This document shows positions 2,489-9,489 of a stretch of DNA of 64,000 nt, piece by piece (the first letter of the stretch is position 1; the number at the start of each line of letters is the position of its first letter). Made by a program: the position numbers and the translations under genes. The notes under the pieces are model-generated. The model was not told the origin of the DNA. It made no database searches and saw only the letters and a program-made list of their open reading frames with translations. Source of the DNA: Escherichia phage I29; sequence record ON286975. One strand, given 5' to 3'.

Positions 2489-2518
2489 CAAATAGAAAAT
2501 CCCCGCCGAAGCGGGGGA
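2489..2518 (-). terminator. intrinsic terminator, UUCG-tetraloop hairpin
   Basis: Minus-strand RNA CCCCGC-UUCG-GCGGGG (2501-2516) followed by AUUUUCUAUUU; same hairpin recurs at 28749 and 34014. Confidence 0.6.
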
Positions 2519-2529
2519 GGTCTTAGAAA

Positions 2530-2910
2530 TTAATCGTAGTGTGCCAAAATCTCTCCATCGTTGCAAGTTCCCTCTACAAAGTTATGAAGATTCATGCACT
2601 CATCTTGATAGAAGAATTTACCGCTTTTCAGCCGTAAGCCAAACAACTCCGCATCTCCACGATGGCAAGCCTCTACAAGTTCATAGATTTCATACGGCAA
2701 CTCTCCGTCGTCATGGAAGAACCCAGCCTTATCGTTGACATAGATGAAGAAATAATCACTGCTGTCGCAAGCGTCCAATATTTTAAACCAGATTTCATCT
2801 ACATCTTTTTCTCGGATATCGATCACGCAAGTGGAGCTGCATTCGTACTCCTTCTCCGGCTCCTCGGTCAATACCACCAGGTAGTTTCCCCGCTTACCTA
2901 CTTTAGCCAT
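2530..2910 (-). CDS. hypothetical protein, 126 aa
   Basis: ORF in co-oriented block, ends just upstream of terminator hairpin; no motif recognised. Confidence 0.5.
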   Translation of the reverse strand: MAKVGKRGNYLVVLTEEPEKEYECSSTCVIDIREKDVDEIWFKILDACDSSDYFFIYVNDKAGFFHDDGELPYEIYELVEACHRGDAELFGLRLKSGKFFYQDECMNLHNFVEGTCNDGEILAHYD

Positions 2911-2919
2911 ACAACCCCC

Positions 2920-4104
2920 TTAAGCTTTAGCCAAAATGGCGCTAAACTCTTCACCAAACTCTTTTACAATCTTCATCAGGTTTGGGTATGCTTTGATCAG
3001 CTGAGCAACAATCTTGTCACGCCCTTTGCCGATAAGCAAGGCATTTCCTAAGGCATTAGGTTTCATCATCGCCATAAAGACTGAGAATACAAAATCTCGG
3101 TTCTCGTCCTTGAAGTTTTCCCAAAGGAAATCGAGGAAGTTTGCCACGCAGCTGACAAGATCTTCGTCTGAGATACTTGCATTTTCCATCATATTACGAA
3201 TAGCGATACAACCTTCAGATCCAAGAATCCACAAAATGTCTGGCTGCTTAGGACCTACGTATTCTTTGCAACCACCTGCCATAATCCGACCGATTTCAGG
3301 TAAATTGCGTTTCTTGGTGTGGTATGTCCAGATCTCTACCGCTGCAGTGTGACCAATAGCACCTTGCAGAAGAACACGGGCCATAGCGTCAGAAATAATA
3401 CCGCTGTCAAAATCGTGCAAGATATCAGATGCAGCAACCCAAGATCGCGGTGTGGCAAAAGATGGACAATTAATCTCAGCCATGGCCTCATAATTATCGA
3501 TAGCTGATGGAACTCTTTTCAGATATCCAATTACAGAGGAGTGCACCCCATTAAGGAATGCGTAGTCCTCAATAAACACCTCTGCATTGCTTGTAACCTC
3601 TACAATGATAAAACGGTTAGCCAGAGGGGCTTCGAGCGCCGAAAGAACCGCACCATCTGTAGAACGGTTACCAGCAGCCACAAAAACAGAACCCTTAGGG
3701 AATGCATAGGTACCGCACTTGTGGTCAAGCATAATTTGCATTGCAACCTTTTGCAGGTAGTTATCTGCATGAGTGAGCTCATCCAGAAAGATAATTCCGC
3801 CCCAGTCAGGATCCGCAGGCCAAAATTCTGGAATTGCAAACACTGTACGTGTAGTTCCATCCGCCTCTACAGGGATAGGTAGCCCAGATAAGTCGGCAGG
3901 ATCTTTATCTGACAGTCGCACGTCAACAAGGTTGTCATCTCGCTCACCGAACATATTATCAGCGATCTGCTTCATCACCTGGCTTTTACCCACACCCATT
4001 GGTCCCAAAATTAGGACAGATCGGCTATGACGTTGGGCAAACTGAATAATAGCTGGCAACTCACGGACAGTGATTTGACCACTTTCGAATACGTTTCTTG
4101 ACAT
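2920..4104 (-). CDS. MoxR-like AAA+ ATPase
   Basis: Walker A LILGPMGVGKSQ and Walker B IIFLDELTHAD in a ~390-aa single-AAA protein, typical of MoxR/CbbQ-type ATPases. Confidence 0.8.
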   Translation of the reverse strand: MSRNVFESGQITVRELPAIIQFAQRHSRSVLILGPMGVGKSQVMKQIADNMFGERDDNLVDVRLSDKDPADLSGLPIPVEADGTTRTVFAIPEFWPADPDWGGIIFLDELTHADNYLQKVAMQIMLDHKCGTYAFPKGSVFVAAGNRSTDGAVLSALEAPLANRFIIVEVTSNAEVFIEDYAFLNGVHSSVIGYLKRVPSAIDNYEAMAEINCPSFATPRSWVAASDILHDFDSGIISDAMARVLLQGAIGHTAAVEIWTYHTKKRNLPEIGRIMAGGCKEYVGPKQPDILWILGSEGCIAIRNMMENASISDEDLVSCVANFLDFLWENFKDENRDFVFSVFMAMMKPNALGNALLIGKGRDKIVAQLIKAYPNLMKIVKEFGEEFSAILAKA

Positions 4105-4373
4105 TAGTAAAAGTCCTCTACTTGTGTGTAAGTGTTTTCAAAGTTTTCCAAAACAGATATCACATCGGATCTGTCAATATCATACGTGACTCTCCAGTTG
4201 TACGCAACCCTTTCTGCTGTTGCCTCTTCTGGCGCTAGTCGTCTGCTGGCATAAAAGAGTGTTGGAGTACACTTTCTTGCTTGCCCTCTAACTTTCCCAT
4301 AATAATATCTGTGAATATCTTTGTCAAAATTTAACTCTTTTTCTGCACGAAGTTCATATTGCTGGTATAACAT
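4104..4373 (-). CDS. hypothetical protein, 89 aa
   Basis: ORF whose stop overlaps the MoxR start codon; no motif recognised. Confidence 0.45.
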   Translation of the reverse strand: MLYQQYELRAEKELNFDKDIHRYYYGKVRGQARKCTPTLFYASRRLAPEEATAERVAYNWRVTYDIDRSDVISVLENFENTYTQVEDFY

Positions 4374-4417
4374 CTCTACTACTCCTTAAGCAGCATCCTT
4401 GCCGCCATTCCTGCCCA

Positions 4418-4798
4418 CTAAAATGCAGTCCGAATCCAGACAAGGTTCTTATCTGCCCAATCATAGAGGCAAGTCATTGCACTATTGAATTGCTCACACG
4501 GAGGATAATCTTCTTCCATCTGACGCATAGCAGAGCCTTGTGGGTAAAGCTCCCGTGCTGCAAACCACGCGTCGTAGTCATCAACGGTGTCGAAGTAGTA
4601 TACAACATCCTCCAACTCAGGATCGAACTTTGAACTATCAGGATCCAGTTGTTCAGGGAACTTGGAGCGTAACTTGCCAGCCACAATACTTGCCAACTCG
4701 CTAACATGCTTATTGTCCCACTCCACTAGCTTCCCGTCTTCAGTGATGCGTCCTAACCACTGATCATGAAGGTCAACTGTTGTCTTCCACCGAGCCAT
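4418..4798 (-). CDS. hypothetical protein, 126 aa
   Basis: ORF in tightly packed minus-strand block; acidic, no motif recognised. Confidence 0.5.
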   Translation of the reverse strand: MARWKTTVDLHDQWLGRITEDGKLVEWDNKHVSELASIVAGKLRSKFPEQLDPDSSKFDPELEDVVYYFDTVDDYDAWFAARELYPQGSAMRQMEEDYPPCEQFNSAMTCLYDWADKNLVWIRTAF

Positions 4799-4800
4799 TA

Positions 4801-5058
4801 TCAGTCCACCTCTTCTTCTCGTTGTAGTTCAAGATACCCGTAGGTCTGGACATCTTCAAGGGTGTGGAACTCCCCATCTGCCGCTAATGCACGAACAACT
4901 TGGCACAAAACCTTATGAGGAACTTCATCCAGACCAAGATTCAGTGCAGGGAACACCTTATCTAAGTCAACAAAATAAATGAACTGGAGCTCACCAGCTT
5001 CAAAAGGTGTATCTTCAATAAACATCTTCTCGGCATTAGTCAAGATCTGCACTTTCAT
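4801..5058 (-). CDS. hypothetical protein, 85 aa
   Basis: ORF in tightly packed minus-strand block. Confidence 0.45.
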   Translation of the reverse strand: MKVQILTNAEKMFIEDTPFEAGELQFIYFVDLDKVFPALNLGLDEVPHKVLCQVVRALAADGEFHTLEDVQTYGYLELQREEEVD

Positions 5059-5435
5059 TATTCTACCTCCTCTTCTTTTTCTTCGGCATTAGTTTCATGG
5101 CTACCCCACTCTGGAGTTTCCACCTCGATAGTAAACTCACGCACTACACGGTAATTGCCCATGAAGCGCTCCACTTCGTCAAGGCTTATGGAGAAGCCAT
5201 TGGCAACCAGGTCTGCAGCACCCTCTTCTACCAGGTAGTCCAGATTGGCTTCCAGAGCTTCAGGTTCAAACCCTGTCAATGCAATCAGATAACCTTTCCC
5301 TTCATCAGGGAGGACAATACATCCCAACTGATTTTCTTTAAAAAGGCAGTGACCATCATTGTTGATTGGGTGTTCATTGCAGTAAATAGCTGCACGATAA
5401 GTAACTTTAGACATCGGTAAGGTCTCCTTAGGCAA
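5058..5435 (-). CDS. hypothetical protein, 125 aa
   Basis: ORF in tightly packed minus-strand block, acidic C-terminus. Confidence 0.5.
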   Translation of the reverse strand: MPKETLPMSKVTYRAAIYCNEHPINNDGHCLFKENQLGCIVLPDEGKGYLIALTGFEPEALEANLDYLVEEGAADLVANGFSISLDEVERFMGNYRVVREFTIEVETPEWGSHETNAEEKEEEVE

Positions 5436-5706
5436 TTGTCATTTTACATTCTTGAAATTTTAACACAAGACGGTGATTGTGTCTAGTGTCTAAAAAGATT
5501 TTTTCAACCATCAGGCACACGGTATAACCGTCCATCTTGTTGACAACAAAATCTCCAGGATGAGGGAGGATGTCTCCCGGATTGGGGAAACATAGTCCAC
5601 TCAGAAAGGCATCGTCAGTGGTGGACTTAATAGATTTCCACACACTGTCTGCCTGAACATGTTCACCGACGTAATATACATTACCACATGCCTTCATCAT
5701 AGTCAA
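5428..5706 (-). CDS. hypothetical protein, 92 aa
   Basis: ORF overlapping neighbours by a few nt (operon-like packing). Confidence 0.45.
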   Translation of the reverse strand: MTMMKACGNVYYVGEHVQADSVWKSIKSTTDDAFLSGLCFPNPGDILPHPGDFVVNKMDGYTVCLMVEKIFLDTRHNHRLVLKFQECKMTIA

Positions 5707-6602
5707 ACCCTCGCATAAATTAAACTTGTATCAGTATACTTCTTTAATGGGTAAATATCCTGTCCATAGATGCAATCATTAAACACCTCATCTACCCAAA
5801 GGCTACACTTATATCCCATCATTTCTAAAACACTCATCTCTTCTTCGGTAAACTTATCACCACTCTTGCAAGATGTCAATACCTCATTCTGAACTCTTGC
5901 TACCTCGAATCGGTTATTGGCAATATCGCTATTGGCGATCAAATACTCACCTAGAGGGTGTGCGGCATTAAAGATGCACAGTGGACGGCTGACGTAATAG
6001 TCTCCGGGTGTATAAAAATTGTTGAGGTCTTTCACTAGAACATTCTTATCAGTCACTTCATTTATAACATCATGCATATCGCACATCTTTATATGTTTGA
6101 GGATTCCATCTCCCATCACAAAATAAAAACTTGCTGAGACACTTTCGGCATAGATCTTACTAGATCCGTTGTAGTTGTATTTTACTCGGATGCTAACGGG
6201 GGTTTTTCCTGTCGCGTTAGCCATCATCCAAAGAAATGGCAGCTCATACTTCTCCTCTGAGGAAACAAAAGGTGAGGTAGCCAGAGATCGAAAACCTCCA
6301 GAGAAGTTGAAAGTTACAGAACCGCTCCGGCGGTATGATACCGCGTATTCTACTTTTATATCGACGTACCCATTGGAATAGGTGTGTCCTTCATTATCTA
6401 AATATGTCCACTTATCAGACCCAGATACCAATCTACGCTCAATAACCTTCATCACTACAGGAATTAGCGGGTTGGTACAAACCGCTTTTGAAGTAGCTTT
6501 ATCATCTAAAGCCTCGTAAATTGCAGAAAGGATGTCCCCAGCTGAAAGATTGGTTGTTATGTCCTGTTTCCACCGCGTACTAAAACTGTTAAGATTTGCC
6601 AT
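5703..6602 (-). CDS. hypothetical protein, 299 aa
   Basis: First gene of minus-strand block next to divergent intergenic region; no motif recognised. Confidence 0.5.
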   Translation of the reverse strand: MANLNSFSTRWKQDITTNLSAGDILSAIYEALDDKATSKAVCTNPLIPVVMKVIERRLVSGSDKWTYLDNEGHTYSNGYVDIKVEYAVSYRRSGSVTFNFSGGFRSLATSPFVSSEEKYELPFLWMMANATGKTPVSIRVKYNYNGSSKIYAESVSASFYFVMGDGILKHIKMCDMHDVINEVTDKNVLVKDLNNFYTPGDYYVSRPLCIFNAAHPLGEYLIANSDIANNRFEVARVQNEVLTSCKSGDKFTEEEMSVLEMMGYKCSLWVDEVFNDCIYGQDIYPLKKYTDTSLIYARV

Positions 6603-6684
6603 AAGTAAGTGCTCCTATGTTAGTTTTCTTTCGAATGGGTGCACTATATTGTAGAGTTAGAGTAAAGTCAACACGTTTTTGATG

Positions 6685-6713
6685 TTGACATCTGTTGAGA
6701 CAATTGATACGAT
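6685..6713 (+). promoter_or_regulatory. putative sigma70-type promoter
   Basis: TTGACA (6685-6690), 17-nt spacer, TACGAT (6708-6713) in the divergent region, upstream of ATG 6745. Confidence 0.4.
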
Positions 6714-6744
6714 TTCTTCACTTACAGAGCACGAGAGACGACTC

Positions 6745-7722
6745 ATGAATCTTGAAAAATATTATACACCAGAAGAGTTAGAGCGCTTGCTCAAAAAATA
6801 TAGACGCAAACAGAATAACGCACGGAAACGAGATATAGAGTTCGACCTGTCATGGGAAGAATACCTCCTATTTGGTAAAAAACTTTTAGGAGATGGAGTA
6901 TGCGACTATACCCTTATACCTTTTGACATGCACACAGATGAAAACGGGCTGGGGAATCCTTTCTACCCATCTTTGGAGCGTATAGATGATGAAGGCCCTT
7001 ACGCAATTGACAATTGTTGTGTGGTAGGGTTGAGGTGCAATGCTCTGAAAGACTGTCTGGTAGATAAAAAGACTGCAATCCTGATTAAAGACGAAACTGA
7101 TCGAAAAATTGTCCAGCAGATGATGCTCCACCTGAGCGAAGAGCGTATGGAGAAATTGAAAGGTGATTATACTTTTGAAGATTTCATCTTGCAATATGGA
7201 ACGGAAGAGGATAAACTAGCACTATTTGACGAAGAGGAAGAAGATATGTCACCAATGCAGGACTTTAAAAATTTCATGGCTGATCGTGCAGCCAACAAAC
7301 ACATTTCAGACATCGTGAACGAGACTGTGACAGAAGAAGTTGAAGAACAGAACTCTGAAGAGGAAAAAGAGCCTCAGGAGGTCGAAGAGGGGATTGCAGA
7401 AGAGGTTCCTGCACTGCCTGATGATGTTGAGATTGCTAAGGCTTACACTTTCTATTGTCAAACGTTCTACGATGCAGGTATGAAAGTTGATCTGTCGTTC
7501 AGCCAATTTAAGAGTTCGTATATTCGCAAATGCTGTGCTTTAACTGGTGAACGTCTCGGAGCTGGACTTAAACCACTGTTGGTGACCGACTGGAATAAAG
7601 GTTTCACTAAAGGAAACTTTATGGTAGTATCTCCAATTATGGAGAAAGCTATGACAGATCTTATGAAGACCACCCGCATGACAATGACCGAGTTGGCAGG
7701 TATTTTCAAACACGTTAAATAA
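6745..7722 (+). CDS. protein with two degenerate HNH-like segments and an acidic linker
   Basis: ORF track starts at TTG 6679; ATG 6745 lies downstream of the putative promoter; segments CDY..PSLERID..NCC..CNALK and CALTGERL..DWNKG..KGN flank an E/D-rich linker; no canonical catalytic His seen. Confidence 0.45.
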   Translation: MNLEKYYTPEELERLLKKYRRKQNNARKRDIEFDLSWEEYLLFGKKLLGDGVCDYTLIPFDMHTDENGLGNPFYPSLERIDDEGPYAIDNCCVVGLRCNALKDCLVDKKTAILIKDETDRKIVQQMMLHLSEERMEKLKGDYTFEDFILQYGTEEDKLALFDEEEEDMSPMQDFKNFMADRAANKHISDIVNETVTEEVEEQNSEEEKEPQEVEEGIAEEVPALPDDVEIAKAYTFYCQTFYDAGMKVDLSFSQFKSSYIRKCCALTGERLGAGLKPLLVTDWNKGFTKGNFMVVSPIMEKAMTDLMKTTRMTMTELAGIFKHVK

Positions 7723-7727
7723 TGACA

Positions 7728-7742
7728 GGGGCCAATGGCCCC
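7728..7742 (+). promoter_or_regulatory. GC hairpin GGGGCC-AAU-GGCCCC
   Basis: 6-bp GC stem directly after stop of upstream gene; contains the first in-frame ATG (7735) of the VWA ORF. Confidence 0.4.
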
Positions 7743-7755
7743 TTCTGGAGTTTTA

Positions 7756-9216
7756 ATGGATAGCAGAAGTTCAGAAATCATTGCCTCACAGAAAGATGAT
7801 GCCCTGAGAATGTTGCAGGCTGCACGTATGTATCTCCTTGAAAAGCTGCCGTTTTATGGCACACTACTGTCAGGGTTGCAGTTCGTAGAAAACCACACAT
7901 GGTGCTCCACCATGGCAACCGACCATAAACGCATCTATTACAGTCCTGAGTTCATTATGGGATTGGCTGATGAACGCAAGGCTATTCTTAAGGCTTCTCT
8001 AACTGACGAGCAGTTTGAGATGGCTGAAGTTTTCTATTCCCCAAAATCTGTGAAAGAGGTGGCCTTCCTTCTGTCACATGAGGTGGGGCATATTATCTGT
8101 GATCACCTGGTCCGTGGTAAAAGCTTTGAGCCGGAACTGTTCAATATTGCTTGTGATCACGTTATCAACACAGGCCTTGTGGTTGACTTTAGCAAACCTC
8201 CTTGTGTTTTCTTCCCGAAGGGGAAAAGCACTACGTTCGTGAAAGGTAAGCCTTTTGGCTTCTTAGCCAGCTGCTACTGCGACATGAAGTTTCATGGATG
8301 GATTGCTGAGAACGTTTATGCAGTTCTTGATAAGCAAAGAGATCAGAATAACGGTAAAAGTAAGAGCGGTAAAGGTGAGAACTCTCAAGGTGATAAGCGA
8401 CAAACCGATGATCACATGAGTGGGAATGGTGGCACCAGTGATAATCTTGGAAAGGCTATGGGGTATGATCAGCCACAACCTGTAATCAGCCAATCTGATA
8501 AAGATCAGGCCATGCAGGACTCTGGCGATATGCTGGAGGCAGCAATGCAAGCGTCCGGAGGCCGTTGCCCTGAGGCGGTGCGTGAGTTTGTCAAGAACAG
8601 AGGTAAGCCTGTAATCAACTATATAGACATCATTAAGCAACGCATGTTGTCTAAAAGAAAGGCCGAACTGACCTACAGAAAACCTGGTCGCCGATCTGGT
8701 TCTTTGACCAGCACAATGCGAAAAGTTGGGGCTATAAACAAGAACCAGCACGTTATTGTTCCCGGTCGTAATCCTGAAAACACTATAGATATTGTTGTAG
8801 CTTTAGACGTTTCTGGCTCGATCTCTCAAAGAACTTTAAAGAAAATGTTCAATGAAATCACCGGACTGTGCAATCTGTATAAAGAGTTTAAGGTTACGAT
8901 GTTCTGTTGGTCAACCGAGGTTGGAGAGGTCAAAGTATACACTCGCGGCAACATAGACGAGATGATCAACTATGAGGTCCACTCAACATGGGGCACAACA
9001 GCTGCTTGCGTGTTCGAGTATCTGGATGCCAATATACCGAATGCAAAAGATGTCATCGTCCTGACCGACCTATACTTTGAGCATAACTTTGAACAAAAGG
9101 CTGTTGACAACAAGTGGAAAAAGTACGATACTTTATGGGTTCTCACCGAGGGGTATAATAAAAATTATATCCCGAGCTTTGGGAAAACTGTGGAATTAAT
9201 CGAGTACGCCAAGTAA
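7756..9216 (+). CDS. VWA domain protein with N-terminal metallopeptidase-like segment
   Basis: MIDAS-type motif ALDVSGSIS in C-terminal half; N-terminal HEVGH...CDH segment; ATG 7756 preceded by GGAG, preferred over hairpin-buried ATG 7735. Confidence 0.7.
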   Translation: MDSRSSEIIASQKDDALRMLQAARMYLLEKLPFYGTLLSGLQFVENHTWCSTMATDHKRIYYSPEFIMGLADERKAILKASLTDEQFEMAEVFYSPKSVKEVAFLLSHEVGHIICDHLVRGKSFEPELFNIACDHVINTGLVVDFSKPPCVFFPKGKSTTFVKGKPFGFLASCYCDMKFHGWIAENVYAVLDKQRDQNNGKSKSGKGENSQGDKRQTDDHMSGNGGTSDNLGKAMGYDQPQPVISQSDKDQAMQDSGDMLEAAMQASGGRCPEAVREFVKNRGKPVINYIDIIKQRMLSKRKAELTYRKPGRRSGSLTSTMRKVGAINKNQHVIVPGRNPENTIDIVVALDVSGSISQRTLKKMFNEITGLCNLYKEFKVTMFCWSTEVGEVKVYTRGNIDEMINYEVHSTWGTTAACVFEYLDANIPNAKDVIVLTDLYFEHNFEQKAVDNKWKKYDTLWVLTEGYNKNYIPSFGKTVELIEYAK

Positions 9217-9231
9217 GAGAGGACGTTATTT

Positions 9232-9489
9232 ATGGCAACAGAAGTAGTAATCAAATCTGAACGCCCAGTTAAAAAAGCTATCAACACGTTCCCTGTGGGA
9301 ACCATTGTGAGCATGATCACAGAGTCAGGCCGTGTATCTACGCTGCTGATTGTGAAATCTGCATGTTCTTCTTGTGTGTGGGCTTACGATCTGGACGAGA
9401 AAGAACTAAAAGATTTTGTTGGGGAGCTGAAAGCAACCGAGCTCGATGCTCGTATCGAAGTATTTGGTGAAACTATGGAGGAAGAGTAA
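9232..9489 (+). CDS. hypothetical protein, 85 aa
   Basis: ORF in plus-strand small-gene array. Confidence 0.5.
   Translation: MATEVVIKSERPVKKAINTFPVGTIVSMITESGRVSTLLIVKSACSSCVWAYDLDEKELKDFVGELKATELDARIEVFGETMEEE

Follow-up and report, generated by a model that had tools for sequence, protein, structure and literature searches.

The ATPase and its zincin-VWA partner

This work concerns two genes of Escherichia phage I29 (sequence record ON286975), of which a stretch of 64,000 nucleotides, referred to here as the window, was analyzed. One gene encodes a MoxR-class AAA+ ATPase on the minus strand, and the other encodes, on the plus strand, a protein that combines a zincin-like N-terminal domain with a C-terminal VWA (von Willebrand) domain (Table 1). 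The source is a 137-kb rV5-like phage and not a jumbo phage, and positions 2500-9300 align across their whole length, at 97-99.6% identity, with more than 100 rV5-like coliphages (Vequintavirus), such as SophiaRose, HeinrichReichert/Bas58, FFH2, and V5, in whose public records the pair is already labeled 'MoxR ATPase' and 'putative metallopeptidase'. A first-pass annotation made from the letters of the sequence had given the two genes exactly the coordinates and strands that we find and had proposed that they form a single remodeling module, possibly used for host takeover or counter-defense. Profiles, structure, and synteny all support a single module, within which the two proteins would interact physically, and we regard it as probable that they are the two halves of one conserved, early-expressed remodeling machine that serves the phage in counter-defense.

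We accept the minus-strand gene as encoding a divergent MoxR-class AAA+ ATPase because its relatives, at 29-36% identity, carry AAA_3 (the MoxR family) and AAA_5 domains, its AlphaFold model and the PDB matches of that model point to the same class, and its partner is a VWA protein. The MoxR-like assignment of the first-pass annotation stands through relatives, structure, and partner, although not through the AAA_5 profile match of the protein itself, which falls below the Pfam cut-off (17.7 bits against 22), with AAA_3 unlisted. Among the 39 homologous sequences of alignment A1, 16 relatives with 29-33% identity match both AAA_5 and AAA_3, and 5 of the 39 match bpMoxR. The Walker A, Walker B, sensor 1, arginine finger, and sensor 2 elements are all intact in I29, and G37, G39, K40, S41, D108, E109, N146 (the sensor-1 residue), R147, R164, and R220 are invariant in the alignment. 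The protein also matches phrog_1297, labeled 'ATPase' (E=7e-111), and is predicted to form a hexamer and to hydrolyze ATP. A sequence search of the PDB returned only ClpB and ClpC, at the level of the P-loop, and searches of NCBIfam and PADLOC gave no meaningful match for either the ATPase or the VWA protein; the ATPase is therefore not itself a known defense protein.

The AlphaFold (AF2) monomer model of the ATPase, with a predicted local distance difference test score (pLDDT) of 84.5, consists of an AAA+ module (residues ~1-275) followed by a helical C-terminal extension of ~120 residues. DSSP assigned two hairpins to the model: the helix-2 insert (strands 75-81 and 84-90), which precedes Walker B, and a short one (129-134) ahead of sensor 1. 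In a Foldseek search of the PDB with this model, the top 18 matches were all NorQ and CbbQ2 structures (E 5e-8 to 2e-6; target-normalized template modeling score, TM, 0.59-0.68), followed by cso-CbbQ and the MoxR protein CHU_0153, with matches spanning ~275 residues, and no solved structure matched the ~120 helical residues at the C terminus. The NorQ-NorD and CbbQ-CbbO systems that gave these best matches also resemble the phage pair in the layout of the partner, in which an N-terminal domain is joined by a flexible linker to a C-terminal VWA domain with a metal-ion-dependent adhesion site (MIDAS). In NorQ-NorD complexes, a finger of the VWA protein lies inside the pore of the MoxR hexamer (PMC13036017; PDB 9qh4-9qhg, with 6l1q also matched). 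The differences are that sequence identity to NorQ and CbbQ is 17-22%, that the phage ATPase has the additional C-terminal helical domain, and that the N-terminal domain of the phage partner, unlike that of NorD and CbbO, is a zincin-like putative peptidase.

The first-pass annotation had also read the partner as a HEVGH-type N-terminal segment joined to a MIDAS-bearing VWA domain, a description borne out by the Pfam scores of DUF2201_N (PF13203; 97.7 bits against a cut-off of 23.2) and of the VWA-like DUF2201 (PF09967; 43.7 against 26.4), which follow each other in the expected order. Both domains were present in all 55 homologues found. Alignment A2, which covers 40 VWA homologues from rV5-like phages, N4-like phages, and bacteria, shows the zincin histidines and glutamate to be invariant, together with the MIDAS residues D358, S360, G361, S362, T421, and D445; the VWA fold thus has a complete MIDAS (DxSxS...T...D), and the catalytic residues of all three sites (ATPase, zincin, and MIDAS) are unchanged across lineages. 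The linker between the two domains is predicted to be disordered (pLDDT <50 at 209-235). Residue numbers of the partner motifs are counted from a possible start at 7735, which lies inside a hairpin; the start at 7756, preceded by a GGAG ribosome-binding site and in agreement with homologues, is the better one.

A profile search of the PDB with the partner gave weak matches around the HEVGH helix only, namely minigluzincin MJ1213 (E=0.012) and the M48 peptidases BepA and HtpX. No structural match was found for the N-terminal domain, the VWA protein sequence had 0 matches in the PDB, and our literature search found no peptidase assay on the DUF2201 family. The N-terminal domain as a metallopeptidase is a well-founded prediction from its motif. 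Several labels given to the zincin-VWA protein in sequence records are wrong, namely 'HNH endonuclease' (phrog_1314, in many records) and, in some, 'anti-sigma factor' or 'DNA repair ATPase'.

Table 1. Genes, motifs, and promoter elements at the locus, with the pair and its control elements first (aa, amino acids; ORF, open reading frame)
Feature	Positions	Strand	Source or remark
MoxR-class AAA+ ATPase, 394 aa	2920-4104	-	
Walker A GPMGVGKS, residues 34-41	3982-4005	-	G37, G39, K40, S41 invariant (alignment A1)
Walker B D108-E109 (IIFLDELTH)	3778-3783	-	both invariant in A1
Zincin-like (DUF2201_N), disordered linker, VWA (DUF2201), 486 aa; presumed adaptor/effector of the ATPase	7756-9216	+	
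HEVGHIICDH, zincin HExxH and third His	8077-8106	+	H115, E116, H119, H124 invariant in 40 homologues
MIDAS DVSGS	8806-8820	+	completed by T421 (8995-8997) and D445 (9067-9069)
Divergent promoter gap, 142 bp	6603-6744	both	
Minus-strand promoter TTGACT-17-TATAGT	6671-6643	-	promoter scan
Plus-strand promoter TTGACA-17-TACGAT, TG extension	6685-6713	+	promoter scan
rIIA, HATPase-like, 660 aa	1-1983	-	ORF list and GenBank annotation
SleB-like cell-wall hydrolase, N-terminal signal-like segment	1980-2480	-	ORF list and GenBank annotation
126-aa ORF	2530-2910	-	
89-aa ORF	4104-4373	-	context only
126-aa ORF	4418-4798	-	context only
85-aa ORF	4801-5058	-	context only
118-aa ORF	5058-5414	-	context only
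90-aa ORF	5428-5700	-	context only
299-aa ORF	5703-6602	-	context only
Srd/anti-sigma-like gene, 325 aa; opens the rightward operon, to which the VWA gene belongs	6745-7722	+	context only

Linkage of the two genes and their divergent promoters

When 50,697 phage records were searched by tblastn, the ATPase was found in 812 and the VWA protein in 671, and the lineages common to both proteins were the rV5-like phages, the N4-like Schitoviridae, the Rak2-like, PA5oct, Erwinia, and Yersinia jumbo phages, and AR9/PBS1. Linkage was counted by fetching the loci around VWA homologues and then searching them with an ATPase profile. In 18/18 N4-like viral contigs and 76/80 loci of sulfur-oxidizing Gammaproteobacteria, the ATPase gene was the immediate upstream neighbor, on the same strand, and in the 4 bacterial misses the VWA gene was within ~1 kb of a contig end. 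In the Vequintavirus-like loci (7/7), the ATPase gene was ~3.6 kb away on the opposite strand, and among rV5-like phages, including a Klebsiella relative, the two genes were within 3.6-4.6 kb of each other. This Klebsiella phage keeps the divergent layout with different intervening genes, and its ATPase and VWA proteins are 53% and 43-44% identical to those of I29. The pairing of ATPase and VWA protein is far beyond chance. Because the two genes are adjacent in N4-like and bacterial loci and divergent in Vequintavirus-like loci, gene order identifies the pair as an ancient operon of two genes whose halves were separated in the rV5-like lineage.

The homologous pair in the N4-like phages (22-28% identity by tblastn) has the same HExxH and MIDAS residues and belongs to the pre-late genes, near rIIA; in EC1-UPM it is encoded by gp24 (ATPase) and gp25 (VWA), which are 8 bp apart, adjacent and co-directional where the I29 genes are split and divergent. 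Functional data on gp24 and gp25 were not found, and a literature search on N4-like 'von Willebrand' proteins and ATPases likewise returned none. In the Pseudomonas jumbo phage PA5oct (locus L109, 1963-7149), three small ORFs and a putative homing endonuclease lie between the two genes; the record of the ATPase carries the note 'ESI-MS/MS', which marks a protein detected by mass spectrometry, and the VWA protein is mislabeled 'HNH endonuclease'. In the Chromatiales, an AAA_5 ATPase and a DUF2201 protein form a tight operon. At the one locus of this kind that was examined, in Thiocapsa marina (L092, 6710-10986), the next gene encodes a BepA-like protein with Peptidase_M48 and TPR domains and a lipid A acyltransferase gene is nearby, which hints at an envelope-related housekeeping client in bacteria.

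A MoxR ATPase paired with a metallopeptidase-vWA protein was described in group 2.2 jumbo phages by Iyer, Anantharaman, Krishnan, Burroughs, and Aravind in 2021 (Viruses 13:63, PMC7824862). That pair has the same two-protein architecture, with an N-terminal metallopeptidase domain on the vWA protein, and tblastn with the proteins of the window reaches Rak2-like, PA5oct-like, and Erwinia and Yersinia jumbo phages; unlike the jumbo-phage pair, the I29 genes are split into divergent operons. RavA-ViaA of E. coli is also made up of a MoxR ATPase and a VWA partner. RavA, however, binds LdcI and contains LARA and triple-helix domains, ViaA lacks a peptidase domain, the system is chromosomal and linked to respiration, and neither protein had a significant sequence match to those of the window.

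The divergent promoter region that the first-pass annotation had placed between the two operons was confirmed by a promoter scan of the intergenic gap and by conservation of its -35 elements. The two promoters are near-consensus sigma70-type sequences arranged back to back, and their -35 hexamers form an inverted repeat (GTCAAC...GTTGACA) in which both -35 elements are invariant even in relatives whose flanking spacer is too diverged for blastn. The plus-strand promoter also keeps its TG-extended -10 element in a clade with a VWA protein of only 62% identity. Since the pair lies behind sigma70-like promoters, in the neighborhood of rIIA/rIIB and an Srd-like gene, its expression probably precedes that of the late structural genes.

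Evidence for counter-defense and alternative explanations

Functional data on near-identical proteins are available from a HIDEN-SEQ preprint of November 2025, which describes a saturated transposon library of the Vequintavirus Bas54 (Escherichia phage MaxBurger, MZ501093; 10.1101/2025.11.20.689424). Bas54_0063 and Bas54_0055 are the orthologues of the I29 pair and show no substantive difference from it: the ATPase is identical to bas54_0063 at 393/394 residues and the VWA protein to bas54_0055 at 479/486, and the gene order is the same. In the K-12 reference library, both genes were non-essential, with insertions at 60/64 TA sites in bas54_0063 and at 81/86 in bas54_0055 (10.1101/2025.11.20.689424). 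In the comparison of K-12 with the uropathogenic E. coli CFE311, bas54_0063 was depleted with a log2 fold change of -7.23 (q=0) and bas54_0055 with one of -2.20 (p=0.0009, q=0.009), while bas54_0056-0062 and 0064, non-essential on K-12, changed by -0.08 to +0.79, which was not significant (10.1101/2025.11.20.689424). The sheet that holds these values ('Data S6' of Extended Data Table 8) is headed resampling_K-12_vs_CFE303, although the command line and the wig files given in it belong to the CFE311 run; S7 seems to repeat the table of S6. The DNA helicase gene bas54_0068, which lies beside rIIB just outside the window, is also strongly depleted there (-6.32).

The authors of the preprint report that bas54_0063, described as 'a MoxR ATPase', and bas54_0140 are required against the cloned DS-28, a system of CFE311 to which the bas54_0063 deletion is sensitive, and are silent on the VWA partner and on the mechanism (10.1101/2025.11.20.689424). 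DS-28, taken from the DefensePredictor study, pairs a hypothetical protein with a nuclease of the HEPN family and was found, in one survey, on plasmids only. The counter-defense idea of the first-pass annotation has thus gained experimental backing for the ATPase through its orthologue and, more weakly, for the partner through the depletion on CFE311.

Established domain identities, conserved catalytic and MIDAS residues, linkage across lineages, and the conditional essentiality reported in the literature together carry our preferred explanation, a counter-defense module whose ancestral operon would have been split so that its halves now lie in two divergent operons behind back-to-back host-type (sigma70-like) promoters. 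Such a module would be dispensable on a defense-poor laboratory host, whereas on a host with DS-28 the ATPase would be required for escape and the VWA-zincin protein would contribute. By analogy with NorQ-NorD and CbbQ-CbbO, the ATPase hexamer may grip the VWA domain, whose MIDAS site would bind an acidic residue of the target. An ATP-driven twist of the VWA domain against the N-terminal domain, passed through the flexible linker, could then remodel the target, present it to the zincin site for cleavage, or do both, or it could unmask the zincin domain. The target might be a component of DS-28 or something that DS-28 senses.

Several points weigh against this explanation. The physical interaction, the timing of expression, the target, the proteolysis, and the twisting are parts that we infer, and the ATPase and protease activities are predicted. 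Early expression is deduced from promoter-like sequences and gene neighborhood, and promoter-like sites across the region (16) are not above the number expected by chance (12.4 +/- 3.2). The phenotype of the VWA partner is much weaker than that of the ATPase (-2.2 against -7.2), and its depletion was seen on CFE311 itself, so another feature of that strain or a partial polar effect may account for it. The second anti-DS-28 gene that the authors name, bas54_0140, lies outside the window (10.1101/2025.11.20.689424), and the key functional evidence is a preprint. In addition, L008, an IMG/VR contig with a VWA protein that is 46% identical, is the only rV5-related locus in which a search of the 10 kb around the VWA gene found no ATPase homologue. 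That the ATPase has the stronger phenotype implies that the VWA protein is an accessory rather than an obligatory adaptor in this function, or that the ATPase has a second partner.

A bolder form of the counter-defense explanation, which we consider rather unlikely, would make the zincin-VWA protein a protease gated by ATP and targeted through its MIDAS: by twisting the VWA domain, the MoxR hexamer would expose the zincin site and deliver to it a DS-28 component or a host factor that DS-28 monitors. If true, this would be the first AAA+-driven proteolytic anti-defense machine of phages; rV5-like, N4-like, and jumbo phages would share it, and it would descend from an operon with a housekeeping role in bacteria.

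The alternative that best survives, though we think it improbable, is that the ATPase acts independently of the VWA-zincin protein, either alone or with another protein such as the Bas54_0140 orthologue, the partner having a minor and separate function since their partnership was lost when the operon split. The two genes do belong to different operons 3.6 kb apart, their effects on CFE311 differ strongly, and it is bas54_0140 and not bas54_0055 that the preprint names beside the ATPase. Independence is difficult to reconcile, however, with the retention of both genes together in the rV5-like phages sampled, with their ATPase, MIDAS, and zincin residues invariant, or with the strict adjacency of the two genes in N4-like phages and bacteria. 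It also leaves unaccounted for that the VWA gene is depleted in the same host in which all seven genes between it and the ATPase gene stay neutral.

NorQD inserts iron into nitric oxide reductase, CbbQO acts on Rubisco, and CobST and BchID are chelatases, and by comparison with them the phage pair could have an auxiliary metabolic role, inserting a metal cofactor into an enzyme of the host or the phage, or reactivating that enzyme. NorQ and CbbQ are indeed the closest solved structures, and the chromosomal operon in sulfur-oxidizing Gammaproteobacteria suggests a housekeeping client in those bacteria. In the phage, however, no candidate client enzyme is encoded near the pair, neither of the NorQD nor of the CbbQO type, the partner has a conserved zincin motif that is absent from chelatase and activase partners, and the phenotype is tied to a defense system and not to growth conditions. 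This role is accordingly very unlikely, and metal insertion into a client enzyme was rejected, there being no client in the neighborhood and a peptidase motif in the partner.

Least probable of all is that the pair is a virion-assembly chaperone with a maturation protease, as Iyer et al. proposed for the jumbo-phage homologues (PMC7824862) by analogy with the Acidianus two-tailed virus, whose tail development requires a MoxR-vWA system: the mass-spectrometric detection of the PA5oct ATPase would agree with it, but both genes take insertions at 94% of TA sites on K-12 where structural genes take zero, the pair lies beside rIIA/rIIB and the Srd-like gene behind sigma70-like promoters and far from the head and tail modules, the N4-like pair lies between phage RNA polymerase genes and nucleotide-metabolism genes, and the phenotype is host-specific. 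Virion assembly as the main function was therefore rejected, as neither gene is needed on K-12 or located in the structural modules, and the assembly or processing role suggested for the jumbo-phage pair likewise does not fit the dispensability and defense-linked phenotype of the Bas54 orthologues.

The counter-defense module is not new, as the type of module was published in 2021, the genes are annotated in GenBank, and the phenotype of the ATPase is given in the preprint. What this work adds is quantitative evidence for a partnership that spans phage lineages and bacteria, a history for the split operon, a twin promoter that is conserved, the structural placement of the ATPase beside NorQ and CbbQ, and a phenotype of the partner that had passed unremarked in published data and that suggests a concrete two-component hypothesis. 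MoxR/VWA pairs are widespread and few have a known client, and the phage pair is found in hundreds of genomes of at least four lineages. The DS-28 link of a near-identical ATPase offers a tractable E. coli phenotype with which to ask what a MoxR/VWA-peptidase machine acts on, and the main interest is how an AAA+/VWA-peptidase machine defeats a defense system with a HEPN nuclease.

Genes and sequence elements around the pair

Between the two genes, the first-pass annotation had counted six small ORFs of unknown function; there are in fact seven genes, six on the minus strand and one on the plus strand, and those of 299 and 325 aa are not small. For each of the six minus-strand genes, the sole match is to a narrow PHROG of unknown function (one of these PHROGs carries an unsupported label 'ATPase'), and a Pfam search of them gave 0 families. 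Their Bas54 orthologues (0057-0062) are neutral on CFE311. We rejected these small ORFs as parts of the module, given that the orthologues are neutral in the transposon data and that other genes take their place in the Klebsiella relative, and the genes between the ATPase and VWA genes are passengers.

The stop codon of the 89-aa ORF overlaps the start of the ATPase gene (TAATG), with a GAGGA ribosome-binding site upstream, which suggests that the two genes are translationally coupled. The label 'ATPase' belongs to the PHROG of this ORF (13164) and is apparently a contagion from the adjoining gene; its orthologue is neutral on CFE311. In many records, the 299-aa gene is called a 'putative alpha 1-3 fucosyltransferase', a label that looks unsupported, since the gene is without a Pfam match and its sole PHROG is a narrow one of unknown function. 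Directly downstream of the ATPase operon are rIIA and the SleB-like hydrolase gene, and the N4-like pair is likewise found near rIIA.

The 325-aa gene that opens the rightward operon matches phrog_3118 (E=3e-110) and, more weakly, phrog_4592 ('decoy of host sigma70'), phrog_1400 ('Srd anti-sigma factor'), and 'endonuclease VII' PHROGs. It had 0 Pfam matches and is annotated as 'anti-sigma factor' in records, and its orthologue Bas54_0056 is neutral on CFE311. A homologue of this Srd-like gene also precedes the VWA gene in the Klebsiella relative and is found upstream of the VWA gene in L008. Between the Srd-like gene and the VWA start lies a perfect palindromic hairpin, AGGGGCCAATGGCCCCT (7727-7743), which has a 7-bp G+C-rich stem and overlaps the alternative ATG at 7735; it could serve as an attenuator or as an RNA-stability element.

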